A DNA stretch of 64,000 bases from an uncultured Gammaproteobacteria bacterium. Lineage in GTDB: Bacteria > Patescibacteriota > Patescibacteriia > SG8-24. The position numbers and the translations under genes were made by a program. The first letter of the stretch is position 1. Every line of letters begins with the position of its first letter. The stretch lies in NCBI GenBank assembly GCA_964491475.1, contig CAZBFO010000003.1, forward strand, positions 8,766 through 72,765, given 5' to 3'. Positions 9,991-57,122 of the stretch are shown here, piece after piece. The notes beneath the pieces were generated by a model. It saw nothing but the letters and a program-made list of their open reading frames with translations. It did no database searches and was not told the DNA's origin.

Positions 9991-12339
9991 ATGCTTGGAA
10001 GAGGTGCGAAACGAAAGAACGGGCAGCCCTGGTGGCTGCAAAAGAAGACCGCCTTTTTGACGCTCGCGGTTTTTCTTTTTGTCGGAACGGCGGTGTTCGG
10101 CCATGCTGTTGCCGCGTTCGCGCAGGTCAATGCCAAGGTCGGCCTCGGCGTCGAGTTTGCCACGGCGACCGGGCTGGCTACAGGCGACATCCGCACCTAC
10201 GTCTCCAAGATCATCCGCTACTTCCTGCTGCTGCTCGGCACCATCGCCGTGATCCTTTGCATGTACGCCGGCTTCCTCTGGATGACGGCCGGCGGCAACG
10301 AAGAAAAGATTTCCCAAGCGAAGAAAATCCTGACTAACGCGGTGATCGGCCTGCTCATCATCGTCGCCGCATACGCCATCGTGGCGTTCATCTTGCAATC
10401 TTTGGGCATCGATACCGGAGGGGGAGTGACTTCGAGCGGATCCGGTTCCTCGGGCGCCTTGTCCGGCGGAGGAAACGGCTCCAGTCAGCTGGGCAACGGC
10501 ATCATCGAGTACCACTATCCGGAACCGGGACAGACCGACGTGCCCCGCAACACCAAGATTTCGATCACCTTCAAGAAGCCGCTGGTGCTGTCGTCGGTCA
10601 TCAAGAACTACAACGACAAGGGCACTTATGATCCTTCCGACGACCTGCTGTGCGCCAGCGGCAATACTTGCGCTACCGGTACCGCGATTACCTCCGGCAC
10701 GGTGCTTTCCCTGAACACCGATAACATCAAGATCATTCCCAACAGCGCCTTGTTGCCTGGCGGTTCGGGCACTATCGACCAGCAATTCACCAATCGGTAT
10801 CCTGCCGCCTCGACCTCTGACGCCACCTCTCGCTTCACCGCCGTGGTGGTGCCGATGACCGCCGGTCAGCAGCAGACCATCGTGCTCAAGCCGGTGGCGC
10901 CGATCGGTTCCGCCACCGAGAACGTGAACTATCGCGTGGCGCTGCGCGGCGGCGACAACGGCGTGAAGGCCTGGACGCTCCCCGCCACCGGCGCGACGCC
11001 CGTTGCCGGTGCGGCCTTCTCGCGCACCTATGCCGACGGCGGCTATTACTGGTCTTTCACCACCAGCACCATCATCGACGTGACGCCGCCGCAGATCACC
11101 TCGGTCGTCTCTTCGACCTCGTACCCGGTCGGAACGCCGAGCACTTCGATCCTGTACCGCAACCAGTTGCTGCAGATCTACTTTAACGAAGCCATCGATC
11201 CGACCACTTCTACCGGCATCATCGGCACCGGTCCGGGCGGGGGATTCACGATCATTTCCGTTACGGGTCAGTGCAAGCCGGGCACCTATGATGCCAGCGG
11301 CGTCAACGACCCGACGAAGTGCGTCTTCAACGGCGGCAATCCCGGTTCCATCGACGGTACCGTGGCCATCGGCAATCGCAGCACCACGCTGGAGTTCACG
11401 CCGAGCACCCTCTGCGAAAACGTGCCCCTGAACTCCTGCGGCGAGCAGGTGTTCTGCCTGCCGAAGAACGTTCAGCTGACGGTGCGCGCGCTGGCCGCTT
11501 CCATCGGAGCCAGCGGTCCTTCCTCCATAGCTTCCGACGGCGTCGTCGACATGGCCGATAACTCCATGGACGGCAACCAGAACGGCACGGCAGAAGGTCG
11601 TCCGTCGGCGGTGCAGACCGTCAATCCGGCGAGGACTGCCGACTTCTACCGAAACAACCCGCAGACTGGCACCGACCTGGACACCGTGGACGACAACGCC
11701 AAATGGGACTATTGGGTGGGGGCGGACGTGGATTTGGTGGCCCCGTTCATCACCGAGATGGACCCGATTCCGCTGGGTAACGGCGCTCCGCTGCAGTATC
11801 CGGCCGGACCTTCGCAGGTGCCTCCGGACTTGGTGCCCGCGATCACCTGGAGCAAGGTCATGAGCATCGGCTCCATCCGCACCGGCGCGTTCGACGAATC
11901 GACGAAATCCTACACGCCGCCCACGTCGACGCTTTCGCTCCGTTCAAACGAATGCAAGAAGAACGGCGCCGACGCCTGCAAGCCGGGCGTGGCCTGCGCC
12001 TGCACGCCTGTCGAAGCTCCGGGATACTTCATCGACTCCGGCCTGCCTATAGCGGGATCGAACGGCGCCTTCTTTACCAAGATGCGCTTCCTGCATCCGG
12101 TCCGTCCGTTTTTTACGGCGAACGATCTCGGGTATACTGATGCTGACGTGCTGGCAGGCGCGAACATCCCCATGTACGTGCCCATCTCGCGGGCCCAACT
12201 GCGCGACACCCGGCAGAACTGCTTCTACCCCAGCAAGTACACCTCGTGCAGTACCAATCCTTCCACCGGTCAAACGTCCTGCTGCAACAGCCAAGTGACG
12301 GCAGACGGCACGTTCCTCACTACGTGCACGCCCAACTAG
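9991..12339 (+). CDS. large secreted/surface protein: signal peptide plus two-helix pilin-like (VirB2/TrbC-type architecture) N-terminal module, Ig-like domains, Cys-rich C-terminus
   Basis: 782 aa; N-terminal ~130 aa paralogous to the N-terminus of the following giant ORF (..YAGFLWMTAGGNEEKISQAKKIL..); Ser/Thr/Gly-rich beta-domain-like repeats; C-terminal CCNSQV..C. Confidence 0.8.
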   Translation: MLGRGAKRKNGQPWWLQKKTAFLTLAVFLFVGTAVFGHAVAAFAQVNAKVGLGVEFATATGLATGDIRTYVSKIIRYFLLLLGTIAVILCMYAGFLWMTAGGNEEKISQAKKILTNAVIGLLIIVAAYAIVAFILQSLGIDTGGGVTSSGSGSSGALSGGGNGSSQLGNGIIEYHYPEPGQTDVPRNTKISITFKKPLVLSSVIKNYNDKGTYDPSDDLLCASGNTCATGTAITSGTVLSLNTDNIKIIPNSALLPGGSGTIDQQFTNRYPAASTSDATSRFTAVVVPMTAGQQQTIVLKPVAPIGSATENVNYRVALRGGDNGVKAWTLPATGATPVAGAAFSRTYADGGYYWSFTTSTIIDVTPPQITSVVSSTSYPVGTPSTSILYRNQLLQIYFNEAIDPTTSTGIIGTGPGGGFTIISVTGQCKPGTYDASGVNDPTKCVFNGGNPGSIDGTVAIGNRSTTLEFTPSTLCENVPLNSCGEQVFCLPKNVQLTVRALAASIGASGPSSIASDGVVDMADNSMDGNQNGTAEGRPSAVQTVNPARTADFYRNNPQTGTDLDTVDDNAKWDYWVGADVDLVAPFITEMDPIPLGNGAPLQYPAGPSQVPPDLVPAITWSKVMSIGSIRTGAFDESTKSYTPPTSTLSLRSNECKKNGADACKPGVACACTPVEAPGYFIDSGLPIAGSNGAFFTKMRFLHPVRPFFTANDLGYTDADVLAGANIPMYVPISRAQLRDTRQNCFYPSKYTSCSTNPSTGQTSCCNSQVTADGTFLTTCTPN

Positions 12340-12349: not shown

Positions 12350-15300
12350 ATGACTGCCATGACCACTTTCGTGAAAACCACACTCAAAAAGATTCGGAAC
12401 GCGTCGGCTGCGATAGCCGTCGCGTTTCTGGCGCTTCCGGTGGCCGTGTACGCGGCCGGTCCCGACCTCGGTTTGTCGTATGCAACTGCTACCGGACTGA
12501 CCACCACGGACATCCGCACGGTCATTGCCAGGATCATCAGCTACTTCCTGGGACTGCTCGGGCTGATCGCCCTGCTGCTGATTCTGTATGCGGGCTTCAC
12601 CTGGATGACTGCCGGCGGCAACGAAGAAAAGGTCAGCCAGGCCAAGCGCATCCTCACGCAAGCGGTCATCGGCCTCGTCATCATCATGTCGGCATTCGCC
12701 ATCACGCAGTTCGTCATCGGCGCGATTACCGAGGGAACTTTGGGAGGCAACACCTCGAACAGCGGCTGCACCACTCCGGGGGGGTGCTGCCCCGCCGGCC
12801 AGATCTGCAGCGGCCTGTCCGGAGGAGGGGGATTCAACGTTACCGGCATCACTCCGGCGGGCGCAGGCCCTGGTAATGGCGGCTGGCCCAAGAATTCCTC
12901 GCTCTCGGTCAATTTCAACGCCAACGTCAACATGGCCAGCGCCACCTCCACCAACGTGCAGGTGTTCAAATGCAATCCGCGTTTGGTGAACGGGGCCGCT
13001 TCGCCCTTCAATTACAATTCCTGCAATACGCCGGTGGCCGGCACCATCACCGCTGGCGGCAGCGGCAACCGCATTGACTTCCAGCCGACTGGCACGCCGG
13101 GACCGAACCCGACCGATTTCGAGGCCGATTTCTGGTACAAGATCAGCGTGCAGGGTCAGGCGGTGACCTCGCAGGCCGGCGATCCGCTGCAGTGCCCGCT
13201 TTTCACCTCGGACATTTCTTTGCCGACCGCCCTGAACTCCTATTGCGCTCGCGCCGTGGCTTTCAACGACAAGCGTGACACGCAACCGCCGACGGTCACG
13301 ATCGGCTCTCCGGTCTCGCCGCCCCCGTATTGCGCTTCTTCTTCCGGCGGCAGCCTGGTGCAGGTGATAGCCACGGGCAATGACGACTTCATGGTCGCGG
13401 GCGTCGACTACCTGCTCGACGGCGGCAGTTCCGGCCTGACCGACGTGCGCGGCGTTCCGTTGTCGTCCTCCGTCAACAACGCGGCCGCATTGCCGTTCAA
13501 CTCCGCTGACATCTACGCGGACATCGGCAAGTTGGCGCCGGGCATGCATTCGGTGAGCGCCGTGGCGCGGGACGGCGTGCCGCAGATGAGCTCGACCGCG
13601 CAAACGCAGTTCAAGGTGAACGCGCCGCATTGCTGCAACAACGTGCTCGACACCGCGCAAGGCGAGACCGGCAAGGACTGCGGAGGGGAGTGCGGCTCCT
13701 GCGTCGGAGGGTCCTGCACCGCCACTGCCGATTGCGCCGCGGGTGCGGTCTGCGTCAGCGGCAAATGCGTTACGCAGCCGACGATCACCAGCATCAACAC
13801 CTATTCCGCCGGGCCCGGCACGTACATCACCATCAAGGGAACCGGTTTCGGCACGATTGCCGGCACGGTCACGTTCCTCGGCGCCGCCGGCGACGGCGAC
13901 GACAAGATCGCGCAGGCCTGCGCCGCCAACCAGGGCTGGTCCGACACGCAGGTCATCGTGATCGTCCCTGCGGGCGCAGTCGACGGTCCCATCAAGCTGG
14001 CCGCATCGACGGGATTCGACGCCACCAACGATGCCAACGGCCCGCAGCTGCCTGATTTCAAGATCACTACCGCGACCGCCCCCGGCATCTGCTATCTCGA
14101 TCCGGCTTCCGGAGCTGCTGGCACCAAGTTTGCCATCAACGGCGCGGGCTTCGGGGCTACCATCGGCACGAGCTTCGTGCAGGTGGGATCGACGCAGGCG
14201 ACTGTCGTGACCTGCGGCACGGGCGATACCGACTGCGGTTGGAGCGACTCCCGCATCTGGGTGACGACGCCGCCGATCGCCGAAGGGGATTATCCCGTCA
14301 CTGCAACCGTCAACGGCACGCTTTCCAATCCGAGCACCTACGTGATCAGGCCGGCAGACCCGTTGGCCAGGCCCACCGTCACCGGTGTCATTCCCGAATC
14401 CGGCCCCGTCGGCACCTATGTCACCATCCAAGGTCTGCACTTCGGCACGCGCAAGGGCGTGGTGAAGTTCCTTTACGGCTCCGGCCTCACGGCCGAGGTC
14501 GCCCTTTCCGACGATCCCGTCTGCAGCGACAACTGGCACGACAACTACATCATCGTGAAGGTGCCGGCCAAATATAAGAGCACCTTGCCCGTCAACGCCT
14601 CCAACGCGGGCGTGTCGCATGGCATCCAAGTGGAGACGTCGACGCCCACGCAGATCAGCAACAACAATATTTCTTTCGGCGTGAACTTGGATCCGCTGCG
14701 CCCCGGCATCTGCTCGCTCAAGCCGGACAACGGTCCGGCTGCCAGCAATGTGACCGTGAACGGCGAAGGGTTCAACGGGGGAGGGCAGACGCCGTCTTCG
14801 CCGGGAGCCGCCTCCTCGCCACGGTTCAGCCTTGAATTCTACAAGACCGTCGGCAAGCACTGTCTCTACAGCCCGGCGACCGCCTGCGACGCATTGGCGC
14901 TCGGCACGGCCTGTCCCACTTCGGGTCAGGGCGTTTGCGTCCCCAACACCTTGCCTGCGCCGTTGTTCCGCAGCTGGAGCGACACCACGATCGAAGGGGT
15001 GGTCGCCGGCATTACCACCGACAAGGCCACCTGGCCGAAGACCGGTCCGGTGTACGTCATCGCCAACAACCAGTTGAGCGCCAACGCGGTACCGTTCACC
15101 GTGCAGGACTGCAACCAGGCGGGCATCACTTGCCCCGTCGGCAATCAGTGCTGCTCGAACGGCGCCTGCCAGACCAGCTGCGTGCCTGCCGCCAAGACCA
15201 GCGCCTACGGCTGGCAGTTCAGCACCAGCGTGCTGCCTGCGCTGCCCTATGTCATCGAGCGTGCGCAATGCGACATCGATGCCAAGCTGTTCCAGAGCCC

Positions 15301-18300
15301 GTCGCCGGCGCACGACAGTCAGGATGCCTGCAAGAACGCCCAGGCATACTTCGAGTTCAGCAGGCCGCTCGACACCTCGACCATCAGCAACTCGACCGTG
15401 AAGGCGGACAAATGCGGCACCGGCGATACGCCTGACTGCACGACACCGGTTTCCGTCGCCATGACCATCGGTCAGTCGTCTTTTACCGGTTGCGACGCCC
15501 TGAATCCCGCAAATTGTACCGGCTTCCAGACGCAGCCGAGTCCCGGCTACAACGGCGGCTTCTGGGAAAAGAAGGCCTGGTACCGTGTCACGCTGGTTTC
15601 CAATCCCGCGACCGGCATCGGTCTCCGGGAACCGGGTCCCACGGGTAAGTTCCTGGACGGAGATTTGGACAAGAAGCAGGGCGGCAACTACGTCACCATG
15701 TTCCGCGTTCGCGACAGCGATGACCCGTGCCAGATCGCCAACGTGCTCGTGGCGGCTTCTCGCCAGCTCATCGCCGACGACCAGAACCCCATCGGCTTCA
15801 ACGCCAACCCCATTGCCGCGAACTGCAACGTCCTCACCTGCGACGACAATCAGTACAACATTTCCTGGATTGCCGTTCCGGCCTACCTGACCACCAACAT
15901 CGCGCCGATGTCCCAGCCGACGTCGCAGTGCACCCGAAAGGCGTTGGCGCTCAAGGAGACTCCTCCGGGCCTGACGACCCCGTTCACTGCCACGATGTCC
16001 TCCAAGCCCTCGGGTCCGCCGAAGTCCGGCCAATCCGACGTCACGGTGAAGTTTGCCGATCCGAAGGTCATCGCCGTGAGTCCTACCAACGGCTGCACGC
16101 AGGCATGCATCAACGCGGCGATAACCGCGACGTTCAACGTGCCGATGAACGCCGCTTCGTTGAGCGCGTCCAACGTGCAGGTGCAGATCTGCCGCAACGA
16201 CACCTGCGCGCCGCCGTACCTGCCGTTGCCGAACGGTTTCACCTACACCACCTCCTTGTCACCGGACGGCTTCAAGCTGACGGTCAACAAGTCGATGGAC
16301 TTCGCCGTCAACACCTCGTACATCGTGCGCATCCTCGGCGACAATCCGGCTACGCCGGCGATCGAGGGCGCCTACAGCTTGAGCGGCGTGCCGCTTTCCG
16401 GCCTCAACGACGGCCAGAGCTTCTCTTGGAAGTTCCGCACCAAGAACGACCCCTCGCGCTGTGCCGTGGCCAGCACCAAGCTTGAACCCAAATCGGCAAT
16501 CCTGCGGTTCGTAGGTGACAGGGAGGACCTGACCGGCACCGGTTACGGTTCGGCCGATGCCTGCAATCCCGACGGTCAGGAACTCGACACCAGCACCACC
16601 AACTGGCTGTGGACTTTCGACAACCCGAATTTGGTGCTGCAAGGTTTCGTCCATGGCGACGATCTGGCCGGTCCGTACCAGTTCTGGAAGCCGGAAGTGA
16701 AAGCGACGCAATCCACCGTGGTCGACACCAAGCCGCATCCGGTGCTCGGTTGCAGCTCCAGCTGCCTCTACTCCGGCTCGCAGGATTCCTTGCCGGCCTG
16801 CGGCGACGGCATCGTCGACAGCAAGTTCGAGGCATGCGACCTTGGTCCCGCCAACGGCACCGGTCCGTGCAACAAGAACTGCACCTGGCGCGGCAATACC
16901 GCGGCAAACGGCTGCGGTGACGGCAACGTCGACCCCACCAAGGGAGAGGAGTGCGACATGATCAGCGGCGTGTTCCCGCCGGGCTGCAAGAAGCCCGACG
17001 TGGTCGATCCGAACGGCATCTTCGCCACCAACATCGGCTGCATCATGACCGGCGCTTCGACCGTGCCGGGGACGCAGTGCGGCAACGGCCTGATCGGCGA
17101 CGGCGAAGAGTGCGACGACGGCAGCTTGAGCAACGGCGACGGCTGCAACTCGGACTGTCTGCTTGAAGGTTCGCGTCCGTCATGCGTAATCGATCCGACC
17201 AATCCGCAGTGCATCGGCGTCTGCGGCAACGGCAAGCTGGAACCCGGCGAAGACCCTGATTGCGAGAAGGCAGGCGTTTCGCCGTCCACGCTCAACTGCA
17301 GCCCACACACTTGCCTCAAGAACGGCACTTCGGCTTGTGGCACGCCAAACGACCTCAACTGCTGCGGTAATGGCAAGGCTGATCCGGGCGAAGACCCCGC
17401 ATGCGACACCGTCAACGGCATTCCCCTGTACTGCACCACGCGATGCCTGCTCAAAGGCTCCTCGGCTTTCTACGACAAGCCGTCGTTCTGCGGTGACGGC
17501 TACAAGGGAGCGGGGGAAGTGGCTTCCTGCGAGCCCACCGGCAACGGCGACGGTAACACCGACGGCTACCAGGCGACGGTGGCCAACACCCAGCCCGGCT
17601 TCGACGCCACCAATCCGGCCGGCAGCATGAGCACGGTGAAGGGTTCGATTGCCGGCGTCAGCGACGCCAAATCCGGCCGATCCCAGATCACGCTTAGCTG
17701 CACCTGCAAGAACGAGCCTGTAAATTCCCAGGACACCTTCTGCGCCAACCTCCGCCCCGACTTGGCTTGCGCCGACAACGGCTGCTGCATGCCCAGGCCG
17801 ACGGTGGAACGCGTGGAGCCGACCACCTTCAACTCGTGCCGCAACGCGCTTGTGACCATGGTGTTCAGCGAGGTCATGGATGACTCCTCCGTCACCAAGA
17901 ACTTCATGATCGGCTTCGGCAACGGCAACGACGCTTGCCCGCAAGGGACCGTCGAAGTGCCTGCCGCCTACGTGCCGCAGTCTTTCTGGGTACGGTTGTG
18001 GCAGGGGATGGTCAACTTCCTGAAGGACACCTTCATCCGTCCCGTCTTCGGCGTCAGCGGCAACGACGCCGGTTACGACCAGCAGAAATTCTGCAGCGTC
18101 AAGGGCAACGCGATCATGTTCGTCGACGGTACCGGTCCGACCAAGAAATCGGTGCTGACCTTCACGCCTTCCCACGCTTACCCGACAGACAAGTACATGC
18201 GCATTCGCCTGAACGCCGGTGCCAAATCCGCCAGGGGCGTGCCTTTGTCCATCACGAATACCAGCGGTGCAGGCGGTTATACCGCTTACTTCGGCACCGG

Positions 18301-21300
18301 TTCCACGATTTGCGCCGTCCAGAAGGTGACGGTCAATCCGCCGTCCATCCTGCTTTCGTCGGTCGATGACCAGCAGGTCGTCATGGCAAACGCCGTGGCT
18401 GCCGGCGGGCAGGCCATCGCGCCTACGCCCGAATACGCCTGGGGCTGGTCATGGGACACGTATCCCTCGCAGCCGGTCTCCACGGCCGCCCCGCTGGTGA
18501 TTACCCCTCGCGTCTCCAACATCACCGCCTGCTCCCTCGGTGCCAAGTGCACCGCTGCCGGCGGCTGTCCGTGCTACATCGATTCCGGTTCGGCCCTGTG
18601 TACCGTTGCCGGCGGCGCCGATTCCTGCACGGGCACCGTCACTGAAACCCTGCCGATTGCCGATCTGCGCGTTCGCGGCTCCAAGGCCGCAGACGGCGCC
18701 TATTCGCCGAAGAACAGCAAGGGGCAGCTGCCGATCAACGCCAAGGCGGTCATCGCCAACGAATGCGTGCTGCCGTCGGTCTGCACCTCGCCCTCGGGTT
18801 GCAACTGCGGCGTCGGCCCGTCCTCCTGCACGGTCATCAACGGCGCCACGTCCTGCGCGGTTCTCTCCGGTTCGGGCGTCTCCGTAATCAGCTCGCAAAC
18901 CACCACGGGCACCGGTTCCGCCGTGGTAATGCTCTGCAAGCACCCGTGGCCGAATTATCACGCCTGTGTCGGTCAAGGTTGCTATACGGACATCTGGGAG
19001 CCGTATTCTCCGTTGGAATTCCCCGGCGTGGCCTTCTACTACTGCCGCGATTTGGGCAAGACGGGCGCCACATCGATGGCGCCTGGGCAGCCTGTCGCGG
19101 ACGCCGCCGGGGGAACGAAGCCTGCCAAGTCCGCCTTGCTCGCCGGCTCCACTGCTCCCGCGACCACGCTGCCGTGTCTCAAGGAGACTCCCGCCAGCGT
19201 AGCGGCGCCGGTACCGGGCATTCTTCGCGAGTACCTGTTCACTTATGAGTCGAATCTTAGCAATTGCCCTGATGGTCCGCAGTCTGCGGGCGCGCCATGG
19301 CTAAACGACGCTTTCGGCCTGCGCGTTTCGTCGAACGAGAAGCACGTGAGCATCGGCGATTGGTACTTCGGCCGAGGTTTCCGCGGCAATCCGACCCCGA
19401 AGGCGGTTGACGGTTATGGCGCCCTTAGCGAGGGCCGAACCACCTACGTCAGCGCCGCATTCCGAAAGGCAAGCTCGCAGAAGCTCTACACCAACTCATA
19501 CATCCTCTCGTACAGCGACAATTCCGCTCCGGAGACTTCCGCCATCTACGACCAGATACTAGCGAACGTCGATTTCAATGCGGATCCCGACCTGCAGAAC
19601 TTCGGCGCGTGCCGCCTCGGTCCGTCGCGAACCGACGCCATGGTGCTTTGCACCGTCGATAACGACTGCCGCGTCGACAGCTTCGGCAGGCCCGTTCCCG
19701 GCCGTGAGCAGTACAAGTGCGACGCGGCGACCCATACCGGGTGCGTCACCGATAAAAACGTCGCCGCGCCTGATGCCGGCAACCCTGTCGCTTGCGGCAC
19801 CGATTACGACTGCCTCGTCGGCGCTGGCGGCACTTCGCTGAATCGCCCCGCAACGGTCACCTGCGACGTGCCCAAGGCCAAGCTCACGCGCGACGTGAAG
19901 CGATGGTCCGACCTGCTGTCGCTGCGCGATTCGCTGGTCGCCAAGGCGACGGAGACCGGCTCGTTCCCCAAACTTGATGCCGGAACCTTCCTGCGCGCCC
20001 AAACGAACAGCACTTGGCCTTCGTGGGGTGATGCGTTCGCCAAGGGCGTCGGCGGTACCGTGCCGAACGATCCTGTGAACCAGCATGCCGTCTGCGCGGG
20101 TCCGAACCAGCCTTACGACCCCAAGACCTGCTGGGATGCCAACAGGCGTCAGTACGTCTGTCCTCAAGGTTCGCACGTCTACGAGTACCAGAGTTTCGGC
20201 GGCGTCGACTTCTGGCTGCGCAACGATTTCGAGTACGACGTGCTCGGCGATTCCTGGGCCGGCGGCACCTGCCTCGACAAGACCGATCTCGCCTCCTGCA
20301 TCGCCGATCCGATGTGCGGCGGCACCTGCAGCAACAACAAGGCGCAATCTTGCACCGACAGCGGAGATTGCAACGGCGGCACCTGCCAGGTTCCGTGCAA
20401 CTTCCGACTCGGCAAGGTCATCTTCGGCGCAGGGAATTCTGCTTCCTGCCAGGGCGTGCCGATCAGCCCGACCAGTGGCGGTTCCTGCGGTGACGGCATC
20501 CTGCAGGACAACCAGTCTGATCCCGCCAAGAACGAAGTCTGTGAAATCCGCATGACCCAGTCGCAGGCCTGCAACTCCGACCCTGCTAAGCTGGTACAGA
20601 AGCAGGGTGCTTATACGCAGACCTGCAATTCGCAGTGCAACGGCTGGGTGACGCAGGGCGTGTGCACCGCAAGCAGCCAACGTGCCGGGTTTATCTGCGT
20701 CACGAGCGCTGATTGCGGCACGGGCGGTTCCTGCATCACCTGGACCGATTTCCGCTGCAACGGCGAGGCGGGCAACGCCAAGAACGGCGCCGCCTGCGTC
20801 AAGGATTCCGACTGCACTGATGGCGCCAAGAAGGGCGTCTGCGCCAGCGCATGCCAAGGCGGCCGATGCGGCGACGGCGCCGTGCAGGCTCCCGAGCAGT
20901 GCGATGACGGCGCGTTGAACGGCACCTACGGTCATTGCAAGGCGGACTGCACCGCAGTCGGCTTCTCCTGCGGTGACTCGCTGCGCCAGCCCAACGAGGC
21001 TTGTGACTGCGGCGGCGCCAACGGCCAATATGCCTTCAACGGCATCAAGGCCGCGGCGTCCAACACCAATGCTCCCAACCAGTGTCTCCAGAACCCGGCC
21101 GGTTTCAACGTTTACTCGTGCTCTTGGGACTGCAGCGGCGCGGGTCCGCGCTGCGGCGACGGCATAGTCAACGGCACCGCCGAAAAGTGCGACGGCGGCT
21201 TCGAGGAGTTCAAGGGATTCTGCAACGATGCCGCCCAGACGGGCTGCAACGCCACTGCGAACTGCCCCGCGATCGGTACATGCGTTGGCGGCAAATGCAG

Positions 21301-23155
21301 CAACGGCGACAACGTTTCCTGCGTCTCCAATTCGGATTGCGTGGGATCCTGCGGCCACTTCTGCCCGACAGTCGAGCAGAAGCAGCGCCACTCCTGCAAC
21401 CCCAACAATCCGGCGACCATCGCCGATGACGCCACGGCATGCACCTGGTCCGCTTGGACCTGCACGTCGCCCGGCACCTGCGGCAACGGCAAGAAGGAAA
21501 CCGGAGAGCAGTGCGATGACGGCAATACCGACAATACCGATTCTTGCATCATCGACACGTCGCTCAACTACACCTGCAAGGCTTCCATCTGCGGCGACGG
21601 CTACGTAAATCCGGGTGCCGGCGAAGAGTGCGATACCGGTTCGAGCAACGGACGGCCGTGCATTCCCAAATACGGCATCACTTGCAACTACTGCAACGGC
21701 AATTGCCGTGTCGCCACCGTTTCCGGCGCCTACTGCGGCGACAATGCCATACAGGACTCCACCACCGTGCCCGTCGGTCCGGAACAATGCGACGGCGTAA
21801 AGGGACTGGGTGACGATTGGGTGTGCGTGTCCAACAAGGAAGAGAACCGGTCGTTCGGGCTCATCACTGGTCCCGGCGGCTGCTCGAACCAGACCTGCCA
21901 GCGTGCCTGTGCCGACCCAAACTCTTCGGCATGCAACAACACGGGCGGCAACACCGACAGCGATCAGTGCCCTCCTGGGGCCGCGAAGTCGTGGTGCGAT
22001 TCGCGCAAGGCATTGTCGGACAAGGCGTACACTTCCGTCAGCAGCTCATTCAACCTCACGTTCCTCAAGAGCAACACGACGCCGGCGGGGCTCAACGACA
22101 GCTGCGATCCCGACGACGACAATGACGGCGTGCCCGACAGCCTCGATTGCGACCCCAAGAACGCCAACGCCCATCCCTCCTACCAGATTCCCCCTCACGA
22201 CGGATTGGGCGCGGTGCTCATTCCTGCGGCACCCGAAGTCTGCGACGGCATCGACAATGACTGTGACGGAAAGATTGACAACCTGTTGAGTTTAAGCGGT
22301 CAGATGGTCGACGCGCAGACCGACAAGAAGCTGCCGGGCGCGTCCATCCAGTTCTTCTGCGGACCGAACCTGGTGTACGAGTTTCAGGACAACCAGATTG
22401 ACGGGAACGGAAACTTCAACGTCAACAATGCCGCCATCGACTCATCGCTTTGCGCGGGCGTCACGCAAATCGACTACAAGATCGTGTATGGCGGCGGCTT
22501 GTGCGGCGACGCCGGCGGAAGCTTCCCGTACACCCCAGGCGGTTGCTACGGCTGGATACTTCCCAAGCGATACGTCACCAAGAAGCCCGCTCCGGGCGAT
22601 GTTCGTGCCATTCTTACCTGGGGCGCGAACCCCCGAGACGTCGACTTCCACCTGTTTGCCAACCATGATAAGCCGAACAATCATTTGTGGTTCAGCGCCG
22701 GGGGAGGCAACGGTTCAAACATCAGGGCGCAAGTCAACGACGATGCAGGCTTATATACGCTGGACCACGATAGCACGACCGGCCTCGGTCCCGAGACCAT
22801 CTCGCTGCATCCTAAAGACACCTCGACGATTTACCGATTCGTCGCGCATCGATTCAGCGGCTCGGGTGACCTGCTGGCAAGCCCCATTCGAATCATCGCT
22901 TACGCCGTAAGCAAGCTCGACAACTCTTGCATGGAAAGCGTGTGGAACGCGCCGATCTATACGGGTTACAACCCCGTTTCCGACGATGTCTGCGTCTTCC
23001 AAGTACAGGGGGACAAGGTCGGCAACTGGGCAGGGCATGCTGACTGGCCCTTCTTCGCCTGTCCGCACGACACCACTCACAACATGCTGTTCATCAAGCC
23101 TGGCACGAACGGCAACGACGATACGGACGGTGACGCGCCCAAGTTCGACTACTAG
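12350..23155 (+). CDS. giant (3601 aa) cysteine-rich surface protein: pilin-like N-terminal module, 4 IPT/TIG domains, Ig-like domains, two blocks of Myxococcus-type cysteine-rich repeats, Asp-rich metal-binding motifs
   Basis: Uninterrupted 10.8 kb ORF with GC3 bias; TIG-like repeats (..ITSINTYSAGPGTYITIKGTGFG.. x4, ~13.8-14.8 kb); CGNGxxxxGEECDDGxxxNGDGC repeats (~16.75-17.56 and 20.85-21.80 kb); DCDPxxxNAHP...CDGIDNDCDG near the C-terminus. Confidence 0.85.
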   Translation: MTAMTTFVKTTLKKIRNASAAIAVAFLALPVAVYAAGPDLGLSYATATGLTTTDIRTVIARIISYFLGLLGLIALLLILYAGFTWMTAGGNEEKVSQAKRILTQAVIGLVIIMSAFAITQFVIGAITEGTLGGNTSNSGCTTPGGCCPAGQICSGLSGGGGFNVTGITPAGAGPGNGGWPKNSSLSVNFNANVNMASATSTNVQVFKCNPRLVNGAASPFNYNSCNTPVAGTITAGGSGNRIDFQPTGTPGPNPTDFEADFWYKISVQGQAVTSQAGDPLQCPLFTSDISLPTALNSYCARAVAFNDKRDTQPPTVTIGSPVSPPPYCASSSGGSLVQVIATGNDDFMVAGVDYLLDGGSSGLTDVRGVPLSSSVNNAAALPFNSADIYADIGKLAPGMHSVSAVARDGVPQMSSTAQTQFKVNAPHCCNNVLDTAQGETGKDCGGECGSCVGGSCTATADCAAGAVCVSGKCVTQPTITSINTYSAGPGTYITIKGTGFGTIAGTVTFLGAAGDGDDKIAQACAANQGWSDTQVIVIVPAGAVDGPIKLAASTGFDATNDANGPQLPDFKITTATAPGICYLDPASGAAGTKFAINGAGFGATIGTSFVQVGSTQATVVTCGTGDTDCGWSDSRIWVTTPPIAEGDYPVTATVNGTLSNPSTYVIRPADPLARPTVTGVIPESGPVGTYVTIQGLHFGTRKGVVKFLYGSGLTAEVALSDDPVCSDNWHDNYIIVKVPAKYKSTLPVNASNAGVSHGIQVETSTPTQISNNNISFGVNLDPLRPGICSLKPDNGPAASNVTVNGEGFNGGGQTPSSPGAASSPRFSLEFYKTVGKHCLYSPATACDALALGTACPTSGQGVCVPNTLPAPLFRSWSDTTIEGVVAGITTDKATWPKTGPVYVIANNQLSANAVPFTVQDCNQAGITCPVGNQCCSNGACQTSCVPAAKTSAYGWQFSTSVLPALPYVIERAQCDIDAKLFQSPSPAHDSQDACKNAQAYFEFSRPLDTSTISNSTVKADKCGTGDTPDCTTPVSVAMTIGQSSFTGCDALNPANCTGFQTQPSPGYNGGFWEKKAWYRVTLVSNPATGIGLREPGPTGKFLDGDLDKKQGGNYVTMFRVRDSDDPCQIANVLVAASRQLIADDQNPIGFNANPIAANCNVLTCDDNQYNISWIAVPAYLTTNIAPMSQPTSQCTRKALALKETPPGLTTPFTATMSSKPSGPPKSGQSDVTVKFADPKVIAVSPTNGCTQACINAAITATFNVPMNAASLSASNVQVQICRNDTCAPPYLPLPNGFTYTTSLSPDGFKLTVNKSMDFAVNTSYIVRILGDNPATPAIEGAYSLSGVPLSGLNDGQSFSWKFRTKNDPSRCAVASTKLEPKSAILRFVGDREDLTGTGYGSADACNPDGQELDTSTTNWLWTFDNPNLVLQGFVHGDDLAGPYQFWKPEVKATQSTVVDTKPHPVLGCSSSCLYSGSQDSLPACGDGIVDSKFEACDLGPANGTGPCNKNCTWRGNTAANGCGDGNVDPTKGEECDMISGVFPPGCKKPDVVDPNGIFATNIGCIMTGASTVPGTQCGNGLIGDGEECDDGSLSNGDGCNSDCLLEGSRPSCVIDPTNPQCIGVCGNGKLEPGEDPDCEKAGVSPSTLNCSPHTCLKNGTSACGTPNDLNCCGNGKADPGEDPACDTVNGIPLYCTTRCLLKGSSAFYDKPSFCGDGYKGAGEVASCEPTGNGDGNTDGYQATVANTQPGFDATNPAGSMSTVKGSIAGVSDAKSGRSQITLSCTCKNEPVNSQDTFCANLRPDLACADNGCCMPRPTVERVEPTTFNSCRNALVTMVFSEVMDDSSVTKNFMIGFGNGNDACPQGTVEVPAAYVPQSFWVRLWQGMVNFLKDTFIRPVFGVSGNDAGYDQQKFCSVKGNAIMFVDGTGPTKKSVLTFTPSHAYPTDKYMRIRLNAGAKSARGVPLSITNTSGAGGYTAYFGTGSTICAVQKVTVNPPSILLSSVDDQQVVMANAVAAGGQAIAPTPEYAWGWSWDTYPSQPVSTAAPLVITPRVSNITACSLGAKCTAAGGCPCYIDSGSALCTVAGGADSCTGTVTETLPIADLRVRGSKAADGAYSPKNSKGQLPINAKAVIANECVLPSVCTSPSGCNCGVGPSSCTVINGATSCAVLSGSGVSVISSQTTTGTGSAVVMLCKHPWPNYHACVGQGCYTDIWEPYSPLEFPGVAFYYCRDLGKTGATSMAPGQPVADAAGGTKPAKSALLAGSTAPATTLPCLKETPASVAAPVPGILREYLFTYESNLSNCPDGPQSAGAPWLNDAFGLRVSSNEKHVSIGDWYFGRGFRGNPTPKAVDGYGALSEGRTTYVSAAFRKASSQKLYTNSYILSYSDNSAPETSAIYDQILANVDFNADPDLQNFGACRLGPSRTDAMVLCTVDNDCRVDSFGRPVPGREQYKCDAATHTGCVTDKNVAAPDAGNPVACGTDYDCLVGAGGTSLNRPATVTCDVPKAKLTRDVKRWSDLLSLRDSLVAKATETGSFPKLDAGTFLRAQTNSTWPSWGDAFAKGVGGTVPNDPVNQHAVCAGPNQPYDPKTCWDANRRQYVCPQGSHVYEYQSFGGVDFWLRNDFEYDVLGDSWAGGTCLDKTDLASCIADPMCGGTCSNNKAQSCTDSGDCNGGTCQVPCNFRLGKVIFGAGNSASCQGVPISPTSGGSCGDGILQDNQSDPAKNEVCEIRMTQSQACNSDPAKLVQKQGAYTQTCNSQCNGWVTQGVCTASSQRAGFICVTSADCGTGGSCITWTDFRCNGEAGNAKNGAACVKDSDCTDGAKKGVCASACQGGRCGDGAVQAPEQCDDGALNGTYGHCKADCTAVGFSCGDSLRQPNEACDCGGANGQYAFNGIKAAASNTNAPNQCLQNPAGFNVYSCSWDCSGAGPRCGDGIVNGTAEKCDGGFEEFKGFCNDAAQTGCNATANCPAIGTCVGGKCSNGDNVSCVSNSDCVGSCGHFCPTVEQKQRHSCNPNNPATIADDATACTWSAWTCTSPGTCGNGKKETGEQCDDGNTDNTDSCIIDTSLNYTCKASICGDGYVNPGAGEECDTGSSNGRPCIPKYGITCNYCNGNCRVATVSGAYCGDNAIQDSTTVPVGPEQCDGVKGLGDDWVCVSNKEENRSFGLITGPGGCSNQTCQRACADPNSSACNNTGGNTDSDQCPPGAAKSWCDSRKALSDKAYTSVSSSFNLTFLKSNTTPAGLNDSCDPDDDNDGVPDSLDCDPKNANAHPSYQIPPHDGLGAVLIPAAPEVCDGIDNDCDGKIDNLLSLSGQMVDAQTDKKLPGASIQFFCGPNLVYEFQDNQIDGNGNFNVNNAAIDSSLCAGVTQIDYKIVYGGGLCGDAGGSFPYTPGGCYGWILPKRYVTKKPAPGDVRAILTWGANPRDVDFHLFANHDKPNNHLWFSAGGGNGSNIRAQVNDDAGLYTLDHDSTTGLGPETISLHPKDTSTIYRFVAHRFSGSGDLLASPIRIIAYAVSKLDNSCMESVWNAPIYTGYNPVSDDVCVFQVQGDKVGNWAGHADWPFFACPHDTTHNMLFIKPGTNGNDDTDGDAPKFDY

Positions 23156-23181: not shown

Positions 23182-23700
23182 ATGGATTACGAAAACGCAT
23201 ACGACGACGGCGGCAAGCGGCGGACGACGATCATCGCGATCGTCGTCGTCGCCGTAGTGTTGGCGGGCATCGGGGTCATCGTCGCCCTTGTTTTGCGCAA
23301 CAGGTCGGCAGCCGGCGTTTCGTCGTCTTCAGTCGGAAACGGGGGGGCGACGCAGGGGGCCAAGGTGCCCGATGCAAGCTTTCAATACCAGCAGGTTTCC
23401 GACCCTGCTGCGGCAGTGGGCGGCACGGCGGTGAACGCCAATTCGCCGACAAAAGGCGAAACGCCCCAACCGGGCGTCGATCGCCTTTTGACCGACGAAG
23501 AAAAAAAGAACTACGGTTACCCGGTGGAGTGGAGGGTACGCATGCGAACGACAAAAGGAAGCCTCGGTCTTCAGACCGAAATCATCGTCGAAGACAAGGG
23601 TAACTGGAAATTGCCGGTTGGTAACAAAGAAAAAATCGAGGAGCCGGCTTCGGAACCCGCTCCCGTCGCTGCTCCGACGGCAGCGCCAAAGACGCAATAA
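23182..23700 (+). CDS. hypothetical membrane-anchored protein
   Basis: 172 aa; N-terminal TM helix IIAIVVVAVVLAGIGVIVALVL; extracytoplasmic tail. Confidence 0.5.
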   Translation: MDYENAYDDGGKRRTTIIAIVVVAVVLAGIGVIVALVLRNRSAAGVSSSSVGNGGATQGAKVPDASFQYQQVSDPAAAVGGTAVNANSPTKGETPQPGVDRLLTDEEKKNYGYPVEWRVRMRTTKGSLGLQTEIIVEDKGNWKLPVGNKEKIEEPASEPAPVAAPTAAPKTQ

Positions 23701-23743
23701 TGGCCAAACCGCTGGGCGGTGGATAAGCTGAAGCAGACGGTGC

Positions 23744-23778
23744 AAAACCCCTCTGAAAAGAGGGTTTTTGCGTTTTTG
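23744..23778 (+). terminator. intrinsic terminator
   Basis: cccctct-gaaa-agaggg hairpin followed by tttttgcgttttt. Confidence 0.55.
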
Positions 23779-23818
23779 GCGAGAGTCAGGCATTTCCCTA
23801 GAGGCACCGCCTTAAATG

Positions 23819-23827
23819 TGCTATACT
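23819..23827 (+). promoter_or_regulatory. extended -10 element TGCTATACT
   Basis: TGnTATACT about 55 nt upstream of the ATG at 23883; a second GATACT lies 7 nt upstream of that ATG. Confidence 0.35.
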
Positions 23828-23882
23828 CCTAAGTGGAATGGTGCGCAGGTACGTCTGCGTCTAAATCGGCGATACTTGGCGT

Positions 23883-24587
23883 ATGTTCGACGAAAAGAAC
23901 GAACCCGTAGACATCTTGGCGGACGTGGATAAGGTCGTGCCCATGACACCCATGTCTGCGGCGGCGCCTTCGCCCGAAGCTCGGGTCGTGCGTCGCGGAC
24001 CATCCGTTCTGCTGTTGTTCATCATTTTGGCCGCGCTCGGCGGACTGGGCACGGGCGGTTATTTCCTTTTCCGCAGCAAACCGGCAGAGACGCCGTCTGT
24101 GCCTGCCACCGTAATGGAGGATAAAACCGGCACTTCCGCGCAAAATGCTCACGCTACCCCCGCGCCTGCACAGGTCCCCACCCCAGCGGAGAATGCCCAG
24201 CCCGCTCCCGTACCGGTCACACAGCCCCCTGCGAACGTTCCGGTTCCGGCTTCAGGCTCGGGCACCAATGCCAACGCCAATGTTCCTCCGGCCAATGAGC
24301 CGCAACCCACGCAGCCGGTACAGCCTCCCGAACAAGTCCAGAAGCCGCCTGATTCCGACGGCGACGGCTTGAGCGATGCCGAAGAAGTGCAGCTCGGCAC
24401 GAATCCGCAAGCCGTCGATACGGATAGCGACGGCCTGACGGATTTCGATGAGGTCAAGATTTACGGAACCGATCCAAAGAACCCCGATACCGACGGAGAC
24501 GGTTATCTCGACGGCGCAGAGGTCAAGGGCGGATACAATCCGAAAGGACAAGGGAAGTTATTCCAAGTGCCTGCTTCTCCGAAGTAG
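23883..24587 (+). CDS. membrane-anchored Pro-rich protein with thrombospondin-type-3-like Asp (calcium-binding) repeats
   Basis: 234 aa; TM helix [15 protein letters not shown]; Pro-rich linker; [36 protein letters not shown] motifs. Confidence 0.6.
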
Positions 24588-24602
24588 GAAACCAGGAATC
24601 GT

Positions 24603-25718
24603 ATGGCCGAGAACCCGAATGAACTCACAAAACCTGCAGGTGCCGCACCAGGCGGTGACGAGCCGGTGATTCACATCATCCCGGAGAAGTTTTACGGTGC
24701 CGCCCTTCGCAAGAAATTGCCCAAGGCGCAGCCGGCTCCGGCCGCAGCGTCCCAACCGCAGCAGCAGGCCGCTCCCAAGAAGCAGGGGAAGACCGGGCTT
24801 TTGATCGCCATCGGCGTGCTGGTGCTTTTGATCGGCTCTGCCGGCGCCTATTTCTTGCTTGGCAGCAAGAAGACGGCCCCGCCGCCTGCTCCGGTGAACA
24901 CCGCCCCTCCTGCCCCGGTCTGCGGCGACGCCAAGTGCGATGCGCCGTCCGAGACTTACGAGAACTGCAAGGCCGACTGCCCTCCGCCACCTCCGGTGTG
25001 CGGTGATCGCCAGTGCGATGCGGCCACCGAAAACTACAACACCTGCCCCGCCGACTGCCCGCCTCCTGCTCCGGTCTGCGGCGACGCCAAGTGCGAGGAG
25101 CCGACGGAATCGGTCACGTCGTGCCCTGAAGACTGCAAGAAGCCCGAACCCACTGCCGGTGCCGACGCCGACGCCGACGGCCTGACGGACGAAGAAGAGT
25201 CCCAGCTGTATCACACCAATCCCAACGATCCCGAAACCGACAAAGACAGCTTCCTCGACAACAACGAAGTGCTGAAGCTGTTCGATCCGGCCAAACCGAC
25301 GCCGGCAATGCTCCGCGACAACCCCGGCATCGCCATCTACGCAAACGCCGAACAGCACTATGAGGTCTTCCGGCCGGCCAACTGGACGGTGAAGGAAGAT
25401 GACGCCTCCATGAAGACCGTGTTCTTCAACGCTCCCAGCGGCGAGACGGTCACCATCCTGATTTCGGACAAGCAGCCCGGCCAGACGATCATGGATTGGT
25501 ACTTGGCCCACACGCCAGGCGTCACCAGCTCGCAGGTCACCATGTATAACACGCGCCAGGGCTACGATGCCATCATCAGTCCCGACCAGTTCGCCCATTA
25601 CGTCGATTTGGGCAACGGTCATGTGGCTTCCGTGACCTACGGTCTCGGTACCCGCCTGCAGGTGCAGTACAAAGTCACCTTCCAAATGATGGTGCAGAGC
25701 CTGCGGAAGACGCAGTAA
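24603..25718 (+). CDS. membrane-anchored protein with three tandem 26-aa four-Cys repeats, a TSP3-like Asp motif and a C-terminal globular domain
   Basis: 371 aa; TM helix LLIAIGVLVLLIGSAGAYFLL; repeats PVCGDxxCDxxxExYxxCxxDCPPP x3; DADADGLTDEEE..NPNDPETDKD. Confidence 0.6.
   Translation: MAENPNELTKPAGAAPGGDEPVIHIIPEKFYGAALRKKLPKAQPAPAAASQPQQQAAPKKQGKTGLLIAIGVLVLLIGSAGAYFLLGSKKTAPPPAPVNTAPPAPVCGDAKCDAPSETYENCKADCPPPPPVCGDRQCDAATENYNTCPADCPPPAPVCGDAKCEEPTESVTSCPEDCKKPEPTAGADADADGLTDEEESQLYHTNPNDPETDKDSFLDNNEVLKLFDPAKPTPAMLRDNPGIAIYANAEQHYEVFRPANWTVKEDDASMKTVFFNAPSGETVTILISDKQPGQTIMDWYLAHTPGVTSSQVTMYNTRQGYDAIISPDQFAHYVDLGNGHVASVTYGLGTRLQVQYKVTFQMMVQSLRKTQ
24915..25148 (+). repeat. coding tandem repeat, 3 x 78 nt
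   Basis: Copies start at 24915, 24993 and 25071; copies 1 and 3 share an identical ccggtctgcggcgacgccaagtgcga start. Confidence 0.7.
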
Positions 25719-25726: not shown

Positions 25727-25748
25727 GCCGGGGTCCGCCCCGGCTTTT
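25727..25748 (+). terminator. intrinsic terminator
   Basis: gccgggg-tccg-ccccggc hairpin followed by ttttgt. Confidence 0.55.
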
Positions 25749-25783
25749 GTCAATCCCGACGCTTCATCTTTTGGCGACGCCGC

Positions 25784-25799: not shown

Positions 25800-26249
25800 A
25801 TGGTCACCGTCGAATGCATCGGAAAACTGCCTGCGGGATTCACCAAATCGAAGGTGGTCGAGCTGGTTGCGGTCAGCTGCAAAAGGGCTGGCTTCCGCGG
25901 CAACGCTTCCGTCGGCATCCGCATCGTGGATGACCGCGCCATTCGCTCGCTGAACCGGACGCATCGCGGCAAGGATAAGGTCACCGACGTCCTGTCGTTC
26001 TCTGCCACCGAAGGACTGCCCGAAGTCATGGCCTCGGCGGCTAAAGGGGAGCTGGGCGACATCGTCATCGACTTGCCGCAGGTGCGGCGCCAGGCCAAGG
26101 CCATCGGCCGTTCGCCAAAAGACGAGTTCGCGCTGATGGTCGTCCACGGCACCCTGCATCTTCTCGGTTTCGATCACGAGTCCCTCAAGGACGAGGCAAA
26201 AATGTTCGCACTGCAGCACGACATTCTCATCCGCGCCGGCATCCTCTGA
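25800..26249 (+). CDS. ybeY: rRNA maturation endoribonuclease YbeY
   Basis: 149 aa; HGTLHLLGFDHE zinc-binding motif. Confidence 0.85.
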   Translation: MVTVECIGKLPAGFTKSKVVELVAVSCKRAGFRGNASVGIRIVDDRAIRSLNRTHRGKDKVTDVLSFSATEGLPEVMASAAKGELGDIVIDLPQVRRQAKAIGRSPKDEFALMVVHGTLHLLGFDHESLKDEAKMFALQHDILIRAGIL

Positions 26250-27928: not shown

Positions 27929-27957
27929 AAATCATCACAAGCGATACAAGCAACCTA

Positions 27958-27990
27958 AAAAGCGGATGCCAAAACGGCTCCGCTTTTTGG
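27958..27990 (+). terminator. intrinsic terminator after ftsA
   Basis: aagcgga..gcc-aaaac-ggc..tccgctt hairpin followed by ttttt, 30 nt past the ftsA stop; a TTGACG-17-TATTCT promoter-like sequence follows at ~28040. Confidence 0.5.
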
Positions 27991-28139
27991 TACCAGCATC
28001 AATGAACACTTTTTATGTTCAGTTAGCGGTTTTTTGCCTTGACGTGGGGATAACCGATGCCGTATTCTTTATGCATACAGATGCGTTGGCAGAGGCGCGT
28101 CTCATCCCTCATCAACCATTCTTCTCACACGCACACGCT

Positions 28140-57112: not shown

Positions 57113-57122
57113 ATCGGTGATA

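Follow-up and report, generated by a model that had tools for sequence, protein, structure and literature searches.

A conserved pair of membrane-anchored TSP3-repeat proteins encoded next to giant surface protein genes in Patescibacteria

Results

Genes and features of the locus

The window analysed here is a stretch of 64,000 nucleotides (nt) of contig CAZBFO010000003.1 (assembly GCA_964491475.1), with a GC content of ~61%; its gene content and its relatives place it in a genome of the Uhrbacteria type within the Patescibacteria. In it, three small genes, here called genes 1–3, directly follow the gene of a giant surface protein of 3601 amino acids (aa). Our main subject is the pair formed by genes 2 and 3, which we have found in the same position in many Patescibacteria and which we tentatively read as an adaptor or scaffold for the giant proteins. 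The original prediction, made from the sequence of the window, placed three genes on the same strand adjoining the giant gene, and the open reading frames (ORFs) are there at these coordinates. Gene 1 starts 26 nt past the stop of the giant ORF, genes 2 and 3 are separated by 15 nt, and there are no further paralogues of genes 1–3 in the window. The features are listed below, with the method of detection in brackets.

9991..12339, + strand: 782-aa protein with an N-terminal VirB2-like T4SS_pilin domain and Big_5 (Pfam PF18895, 32.7 bits)
12350..23155, + strand: 3601-aa giant surface protein with T4SS_pilin, IPT/TIG, Big_5, DUF4215-like repeats and a MopE-like motif (Pfam PF18895, 40.1 bits)
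23182..23700, + strand: gene 1, 172 aa, variable slot gene
23227-23295, + strand: gene 1 transmembrane segment, aa 16-38 (hydropathy)
23482-23589, + strand: gene 1 conserved motif of the predicted ectodomain, RLLTDEEKKNYGYPVEW
23742..23779, + strand: terminator-like hairpin GCAAAA-CCCUCU-GAAA-AGAGGG-UUUUUGC with a U-run, between genes 1 and 2 (consensus scan)
23883..24587, + strand: gene 2, 234 aa
23901-23933, + strand: gene 2 motif of the predicted cytoplasmic tail (conserved in orthologues)
24003-24071, + strand: gene 2 transmembrane segment, aa 41-63 (hydropathy)
24351-24521, + strand: gene 2, three thrombospondin type 3 (TSP3) repeats (Pfam TSP3_bac)
24528-24572, + strand: gene 2 conserved C-terminal GGYNPKGxGKLF
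24603..25718, + strand: gene 3, 371 aa, with predicted cytoplasmic tail, transmembrane helix, stalk, TSP3 pair and PsbP-like domain
24660..24698, + strand: gene 3 motif of the predicted cytoplasmic tail, EPVIHIIPEKFYG (alignment)
24795..24863, + strand: gene 3 transmembrane helix, aa 65-87 (hydropathy; helix at aa 64-85 in the structure model)
24915..25148, + strand: gene 3, three tandem 78-nt / 26-aa four-Cys mini-repeats, PVCGDxxC-x11-C-x3-C (Tandem Repeats Finder, translation)
25158..25298, + strand: gene 3 TSP3 pair (DADADGLTDEEE and the degenerate ETDKDSFLDNNEV) and conserved LFDP linker
25314..25715, + strand: gene 3 predicted PsbP/Mog1-like alpha/beta domain, aa ~238-371 (AlphaFold2 confidence score >94; Foldseek)
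25727..25750, + strand: terminator-like hairpin GCCGGGG-UCCG-CCCCGGC followed by UUUUGU, after gene 3

Both large upstream proteins exceed the T4SS_pilin (PF18895) cut-off of 26.6 bits. In the giant protein the pilin domain is N-terminal, and Pfam also finds IPT/TIG and Big_5 domains, Cys-rich DUF4215-like repeats and the MopE-like motif.

A PsbP/Mog1-like domain in gene 3

A search of 5.8 billion proteins returned ~60 full-length relatives of gene 3, with identities of 30–87%. The few that carry a name from their source are called hypothetical, thrombospondin type 3 repeat-containing or fibronectin type III (FN3) domain-containing proteins and come from metagenome-assembled genomes (MAGs) of Patescibacteria, Parcubacteria and Uhrbacteria. 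Because the architecture recurs in the ~60 full-length orthologues, the features of gene 3 described here are not due to chance.

The original prediction had left a C-terminal domain of ~170 aa unassigned. A globular domain is indeed present, but it is confined to ~135 aa (aa ~238–371) and is preceded by a TSP3 pair of ~50 aa. Structure prediction yields a PsbP/Mog1-like fold. The AlphaFold2 (AF2) model of the full-length protein, calculated with a 66-sequence alignment, has a mean predicted local distance difference test score (pLDDT) of 83.6, with values >94 from residue ~180 to the end, and a model of aa 183–371 alone has a pLDDT of 90.9 and a predicted TM-score of 0.89. When both models were compared with the PDB using Foldseek, the top 20–22 matches were all PsbP, CyanoP, PsbP-like, Tsi3, BT_1490 or Mog1p, and this fold group alone was found at E <= 1e-3. 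The best match is CyanoP (2lnj), with E values of 1.3e-5 and 2.4e-5, a probability of 1.00 and a target-normalised TM-score of 0.45–0.54. Gene 3 has no match to Pfam PsbP (PF01789) at E <= 0.1; weak matches are found in 6/66 of its relatives (best E 0.0068), and similarly weak signals come from NCBIfam PsbP (E 0.15) and from the comparison of the family profile with CyanoP 2xb3 (E 0.16). The fold matches and the weak, agreeing sequence signals together point to a domain that is predicted to have a remote PsbP/Mog1-like fold and to lie outside the PsbP sequence family. Residues L237, P258 and W261 are invariant in the 66-sequence alignment.

Using HMMER on 1.84 billion cluster representatives (50% identity), we found the domain in 825 at E <= 1e-3 and in 182 at E <= 1e-10. 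Among the 150 domain proteins listed, most are 300–500 aa long and nearly all have the domain at or near the C-terminus. This PsbP-like domain family escapes the current Pfam and NCBIfam models.

The PsbP/Mog1-like proteins of solved structure are non-enzymatic binding modules, and several of them (CyanoP, PsbP, Tsi3) are extracytoplasmic and membrane-tethered. CyanoP and PsbP dock onto the extracytoplasmic face of a membrane complex and Tsi3 binds an effector. The domain of gene 3 has the alpha/beta sandwich fold in common with PsbP, CyanoP and Mog1 (Foldseek probability 1.00, E 2e-5 to 1e-3) and is likewise predicted to be extracytoplasmic, membrane-tethered and non-enzymatic. It differs from PsbP and CyanoP in having no significant sequence similarity, in its non-photosynthetic host, and in being fused to a TSP3 pair and a transmembrane anchor instead of a lipid anchor.

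TSP3 repeats of genes 2 and 3

The four DxDxDG-type motifs quoted for genes 2 and 3 in the original prediction are all present and match Pfam TSP3_bac (PF18884, motif DxDxDGxxDxxE, gathering cut-off 25 bits). Gene 2 scores well above this cut-off over three stretches (74.8 bits, E 4.4e-21), and the single match in gene 3 falls slightly below it (23.9 bits, E 3.7e-5); at E <= 0.1, TSP3_bac is matched by 40/66 members of the gene 3 family. No other segment of the family is as conserved as the TSP3 pair with the LFDP linker, in which D188, D192, G193, E198 and P229 are invariant in the 66-sequence alignment. This motif conservation suggests that the repeats of both proteins bind Ca2+.

Similar loops are found in several known systems. 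The gene 3 family profile aligns the TSP3 pair with a Ca2+-binding motif pair in region B of Staphylococcus aureus Bap (PDB 7c7u / 7c7r; residues 388–426, DYDKDGLLDRYE...DTDGDGKNDGDE; E 0.005 with 7c7u), a short match at the level of the motif alone, the remainder of Bap being unrelated to gene 3. Tandem DxDxDGxxDxxE loops such as those of genes 2 and 3 also occur in Myxococcus CglD/MtsD and in the type 3 repeats of thrombospondin/COMP. The partial NCBIfam matches to CglD (E 7e-9) and MtsD (E 2e-8) are limited to the repeat region, and the proteins of genes 2 and 3 differ from CglD/MtsD in having a bitopic N-terminal anchor, just 2–3 repeats, and no OmpA domain, vWA domain or lipoprotein signal. 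Orthology to CglD/MtsD was ruled out because the scores are far under the equivalog cut-offs.

Paralogy of genes 2 and 3 and their N-terminal motifs

Over 42 aa, the TSP3 pair of gene 2 shares 48% identity with that of gene 3. Locus L006 belongs to the more distant clade whose gene 3 has FN3; its orthologue of gene 2 (371 aa) retains a C-terminal domain homologous to the one of gene 3 (hhalign probability 99.3%, E 1e-20). These similarities show genes 2 and 3 to be paralogues.

Each protein carries a conserved linear motif in its predicted cytoplasmic tail. That of gene 2 is acidic, with the general form EP[EV]D[IM]FA..D; close relatives have EPVDIFADVDK at this place, distant ones EPEDIFA..D or VDDIFAETDK. 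Behind its transmembrane segment gene 2 has a Pro-rich linker. The motif of gene 3 has the consensus hydrophobic-H-x-[MI]-P-x-x-[FY]-x-G (for example VIHIIPEKFYG, IHVMPKDF or IHNMP), with I23, I26, P27, F30 and G32 at least 90% conserved in the 66-sequence alignment and the core [MI]P..[FYL] present in 69/83 tails. Both motifs persist down to ~25% overall identity. Judged only by reading of the sequences, I-H-x-M-P is similar to the INLLP motif of PilN, and IPEKF bears a loose resemblance to the C-terminal EIPAFIRRK of FtsZ in this genome.

Four-Cys mini-repeats of gene 3

Tandem Repeats Finder detects a repeat of period 78 at 24915-25109 (2.5 copies, score 227), and translation adds a third, more divergent copy at 25071-25148 that retains PVCGDxxC-x11-C-x3-C. 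The three tandem 26-aa repeats of the original prediction (24915-25148) are thereby confirmed, as is, exactly, the identity of the first 26 nt of copies 1 and 3. Recent duplication or gene conversion had been proposed as the origin of this identity. A recent duplication is rejected as its cause, the three units being just 60–72% identical at the nucleotide level. For eight identical codons, given the same residues, P is ~0.007 under the codon bias of this genome, and other pairs of copies in orthologues have identical 5' stretches of 28–33 nt. Short-tract conversion or selection is a possible cause of the shared starts.

Copy number varies among the orthologues, most of which have 3 mini-repeats and several 2 or 4. 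In proteins P0061–P0067 an FN3 domain takes the place of the mini-repeats, and in P0056 and P0057 three DUF4215 repeats and one mini-repeat stand at this position, so that DUF4215 and mini-repeat modules are functionally interchangeable. In the 80 loci of the GTDB scan described below, the mini-repeat is absent from every gene 3 ORF that could be scored (ORFs at contig edges, such as that of L009, were left unscored). In view of this variation, replacement and absence, the mini-repeat is a lineage-specific, exchangeable stalk element.

No Pfam or NCBIfam model covers the repeat, in line with the original prediction; gene 3 has no match to DUF4215 (PF13948). The unit VCGDGxCxxGETxxxCxxDC (25–26 aa) is nevertheless common in unrelated bacterial proteins (P0068–P0089), where it forms long arrays; its carriers include a protein of a Myxococcales MAG and one with a trypsin domain. 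As it has no model in either database, the four-Cys repeat is an uncurated repeat family, widespread in other bacteria. Its likeness to DUF4215, the Myxococcus Cys-rich repeat, consists in the CG[DN]G start and the four Cys residues, but the spacing differs (C-x4-C-x11-C-x3-C in the mini-repeat, C-x10-C-x10-C-x3-C in DUF4215).

It had also been proposed that the mini-repeat is a miniature of the Cys-rich repeats of the giant protein. This was not borne out. When the giant protein is scored with a profile hidden Markov model (HMM) of 63 orthologous units, the maximum is 1.0 bit, while the highest-scoring of 50 shuffled versions reaches 0.3; in hhalign, the CGNG/EECDDG repeats of the giant are matched with a probability of 12% over 12 columns, and a comparison by tblastn is likewise insignificant (E 0.069). 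Since the HMM and hhalign scores are insignificant, the idea stays a loose resemblance.

In the AF2 model the mini-repeat region has a pLDDT of 87–92 and lacks regular secondary structure. The N-termini of P0068, P0071, P0072 and P0080, which carry the same type of Cys repeat, resemble signal peptides or lipoprotein signals by eye, and this suggests that the repeat is extracytoplasmic. The conserved four-Cys pattern, the high pLDDT and the company of apparent secretion signals are consistent with the cysteines forming disulfides. Disulfide formation outside the cell is plausible because the genomes of the candidate phyla radiation (CPR) are enriched in oxidoreductases of an MdbA/VKOR-type disulfide system (bioRxiv 10.1101/335083).

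Gene 1, a variable slot gene

Gene 1 has one close homologue alone among the 5.8 billion proteins. A motif of ~40 aa, RLLTDEEKxxYGYPxEW..., is common to gene 1 and to the genes in the same slot of loci L002, L003 and L007. TSP3 repeats, which gene 1 lacks, accompany it in the slot genes of L002 and L003. Elsewhere the slot holds genes of transmembrane proteins with TSP3 repeats, the Cys mini-repeat or other content, or is absent. Gene 1 sits in a fast-evolving accessory slot whose genes draw on a common pool of modules.

Conserved gene order among relatives

Downstream of the three genes lie the following, identified by Pfam.

25800-26249, + strand: ybeY
26259-26651, + strand: dgkA
26675-27928, + strand: ftsA
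~28140-29483, + strand: ftsZ

The mechanical ORF of ftsZ (27909-29483, + strand) opens at a TTG overlapping the 3' end of ftsA, whereas the annotated gene call starts at ~28140.

Seven metagenomic loci show one and the same order: giant T4SS_pilin gene, slot gene(s), gene 2, gene 3, ybeY and dgkA, with ftsA and ftsZ next where the contig reaches. A scan of one genome per GTDB species gave 80 loci, in which gene context was counted from tblastn matches and ORF maps. Apart from generic or mislabelled records, every one belongs to the Patescibacteria (Uhr-, Magasanik-, Falkow-, Kuenen- and Komeilibacteria and unclassified Parcubacteria). Many of the records L028–L088 are titled uncultured Gammaproteobacteria bacterium; their gene content and order are like those of Patescibacteria and they are probably mislabelled.

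Of the 62 loci with more than 6 kb of upstream flank, 60 have a frame of at least 1000 aa on the same strand that ends within 3.5 kb upstream of gene 3, so that the synteny of the array with giant genes, which the original prediction had left to be seen in relatives, holds almost throughout. In the two exceptions, L008 and L086, the giant ORF lies slightly further upstream. In 73/77 loci the place directly upstream of gene 3 is taken by a TSP3-type match to gene 2 in tblastn. On the other side, the distance from gene 3 downstream to ftsA stays within 3 kb in 65/72 loci and within 10.5 kb in 68/72. Of two distant representatives of the C-terminal domain, P0143 and P0233, both on contigs too short to be informative, P0233 also precedes ybeY-dgkA-ftsA.

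Seven loci (L063, L074 and L081–L085) do not have ybeY/ftsA directly downstream. From the reading of N-termini, with no Pfam check, the genes that follow in L082, L084 and L085 are clpP-, secD/F-, glycosyltransferase- and pilD-like and are followed in turn by ftsA-ftsZ; L081 and L083 have a similar set and their flank ends before any ftsA. In L063 and L074 the same kind of reading gives mreC/D-like and PBP2-like genes, greA and lysS. The giant gene is kept upstream in six of the seven (L063, L074 and L081–L084), and the upstream flank of L085 is too short. Because giant genes remain where ybeY/ftsA have been displaced, the upstream association is marginally more robust than the downstream one; both are strong.

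The closeness of ftsA would also fit the main rival of the adaptor or scaffold reading, a role of genes 2 and 3 in division or in the envelope, in which the cytoplasmic motifs would bind FtsA or FtsZ, wall or septum would be the target of the ectodomains and the giant gene would be a mere neighbour. Even at loci that have lost ybeY/ftsA from this place, the genes next to gene 3 still look, from their N-termini, like envelope genes (secD/F-, pilD-, mreC/D- and PBP2-like), and both proteins have strongly conserved short motifs in the cytoplasmic tail, with the likeness to PilN and to the FtsZ C-terminal peptide noted above. A paralogous bitopic pair is moreover the design of PilN/PilO and GspL/GspM. 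FtsA is actin-like, PilN binds PilM and FtsN binds FtsA. The analogy to PilN/PilO, a purely functional one, comprises a paralogous N-in bitopic pair, a short cytoplasmic motif and a nearby gene for an actin-like ATPase, here ftsA; on the other hand, there is no match in sequence or fold, and the motif here is 30–60 aa from the transmembrane segment, not next to it. FtsQ/DivIB, FtsN and PilN/PilO are absent from the Pfam and NCBIfam scans at E <= 1 and from the listed Foldseek matches, and no other divisome family was matched in these scans. Furthermore, L063 and L074 have no ftsA match in the available downstream flank while the giant gene is still upstream, a terminator-like hairpin parts gene 3 from ybeY, and stalks of TSP3, FN3 and Cys repeats are typical of surface display and not of the divisome. 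We consider a division role unlikely.

Transcription units

The hairpin between genes 1 and 2 (23742-23779) has flanking A- and U-tracts and a minimum free energy (MFE) of −17.6 kcal/mol (z −2.25); that after gene 3 (25727-25750) has an MFE of −23 kcal/mol (z −2.5). Similar hairpins surround genes 2–3 in L002, L003 and L005 and partly in L004: comparable ones lie upstream of gene 2 in L002, L003 and L005 and after gene 3 in L002–L005. In L006–L008 there are short gaps without hairpins. Bracketed by hairpins and only 15 nt apart, genes 2 and 3 look like a bicistronic unit of their own in this lineage, and gene 1, 26 nt from the giant stop, looks as if it travels with the giant gene. This suggests three transcription units: the giant gene with gene 1, genes 2–3, and ybeY-dgkA-ftsA-ftsZ. 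A scan of the region for sigma-70 consensus promoters found none. The calcium-dependent surface module coupled to the giant genes, as originally predicted, thus stands as far as the strong synteny (60/62) is concerned, but in this genome the hairpins make genes 2–3 look transcriptionally set apart.

Separate transcription units would also fit three surface proteins that act independently of any specific partner, as adhesins or in host interaction, and whose order reflects vertical inheritance in streamlined genomes. Surface proteins under diversifying pressure typically show such shuffling of modules and such fast evolution as that of gene 1, and TSP3 repeats occur in many unrelated bacterial adhesins, as the partial matches to CglD and MtsD illustrate. 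Against this, the adjacency outlasts downstream rearrangements and holds across several order-level lineages and down to a gene 3 identity of ~25%, and the TSP3 pair, the PsbP-like domain and the cytoplasmic motifs are strongly conserved, unlike variable adhesin tips. We find independence rather unlikely, though it deserves to be kept in mind.

Membrane topology

Each of the three proteins has a single strongly hydrophobic segment (aa 16–38 in gene 1, 41–63 in gene 2 and 65–87 in gene 3). The one transmembrane helix per protein of the original prediction is therefore well founded; the orientation given with it, a short cytoplasmic N-terminus and a region outside the cell, follows mainly from domain content. 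The positive-inside bias is weak (3 against 2 K/R in the 15-aa flanks), and for this reason the N-in/C-out topology of the small proteins is given here as probable.

In the reverse orientation, N-out and C-in, the PsbP/Mog1-like domain would be cytoplasmic and could serve, in the manner of an Eag/DUF1795-type chaperone, to hold the transmembrane hairpin of the giant protein before insertion. The weak charge bias would allow this, the giant gene adjoins as it does with Eag chaperones, and there are low-probability Foldseek matches to SciW/Eag bound to an Rhs transmembrane domain (probability 0.3–0.77). These matches are, however, much weaker than those to PsbP/CyanoP. TSP3, FN3 and the four-Cys repeat are modules of extracytoplasmic type, and the same Cys repeat follows N-termini that resemble signal peptides. 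We regard the reversed topology as very improbable indeed.

Other features of the window

Two further genes touch on the subject of this paper. A TMEM260-like protein O-mannosyltransferase (Pfam E 8e-32) is encoded at 35642-37453 (+ strand), 12 kb downstream. Human TMEM260 O-mannosylates IPT/TIG domains; since the giant protein has three of these, its glycosylation is a possible lead. A P-type cation ATPase with Cation_ATPase_N and Cation_ATPase_C, an architecture like that of Ca2+-ATPases, is encoded at 41047-43617 (− strand), in the same window as the Ca2+-repeat proteins.

The window also contains a tmRNA gene (99.4 bits; 37946-38337, + strand) and two tRNA genes (4040-4113 and 32518-32592, both + strand). 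Further surface-type or unusual proteins are encoded in the regions 55085-59174 and 6362-7816 (both − strand): one with DUF11, one that resembles GHL15 glycosyl hydrolases and carries FG-GAP repeats, and one with a Fic domain.

Discussion

The reading of genes 2 and 3 that we favour, with a probability of about 0.45, is that of a calcium-stabilised, non-enzymatic, membrane-tethered adaptor or scaffold that serves the giant surface proteins. We deem it the most likely because the adjacency to a giant gene is near-universal. The slot genes and gene 3 also swap modules that are found in the giant proteins (TSP3, four-Cys repeats and DUF4215), and on the strength of gene order and shared modules a physical link between the two sets of proteins may be supposed. 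Each protein would begin with a short cytoplasmic tail bearing its own linear motif, followed by one transmembrane anchor and a flexible Pro-rich stalk, stiffened in this lineage by 2–4 four-Cys mini-repeats of presumed disulfide type. The tip of the stalk would carry a pair or triplet of TSP3-type Ca2+-binding loops, which in gene 3 would pack against the non-enzymatic PsbP/Mog1-like binding domain. So built, the proteins would dock onto, position or help assemble the giant proteins encoded upstream, which have a VirB2-like pilin anchor.

There is a parallel in the Eag/DUF1795 adaptors (SciW) of type VI secretion systems (T6SS), where a small protein of the same fold class is likewise encoded beside a very large gene for a secreted or surface protein. 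For such PsbP/Mog1-like proteins encoded beside genes of very large secreted T6SS toxins an adaptor role has been proposed (PMC3482391). The Eag proteins differ in being cytoplasmic and in binding the transmembrane helices of effectors, whereas an extracellular position is predicted for the domain of gene 3, which matches SciW only weakly in structure.

Several observations weigh against the adaptor or scaffold role. The structural match to PsbP is remote, with TM-scores of 0.41–0.54 and identities of 7–15%, the Cys repeat has no significant similarity to the repeats of the giant protein, and there is little positive-inside bias. Terminator-like hairpins part genes 2–3 from the giant gene and gene 1, both in this genome and in close relatives. 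The downstream ybeY-dgkA-ftsA-ftsZ genes are conserved nearly as well as the giant gene upstream, with ftsA close by in 65/72 loci. Finally, synteny alone cannot tell functional coupling from inherited order in small genomes.

An extension of the adaptor or scaffold reading would make genes 2 and 3 transmembrane couplers, the motifs EPEDIFA and IHxMPxxFxG recruiting FtsA/FtsZ or another cytoskeletal ATPase while the ectodomains hold the giant adhesins. This we think quite improbable at present.

None of the modules found here is of a new kind, and databases already list the proteins, as hypothetical or TSP3-repeat proteins. In the literature we found no description of the module, the PsbP-like domain family, the cytoplasmic motifs or the conserved locus. 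Patescibacteria are presumed to live on the surface of other microbes, and for holding on to them giant surface proteins are obvious candidates; to our knowledge, almost nothing is known of how such giant proteins are anchored and assembled. The pair described here is a conserved two-gene accessory module, found in ~80 species genomes in a fixed position between the giant genes and ftsA-ftsZ. If the coupler idea were true, the placement and assembly of the host-attachment apparatus would be tied to the division machinery in these ultra-small episymbiotic bacteria.

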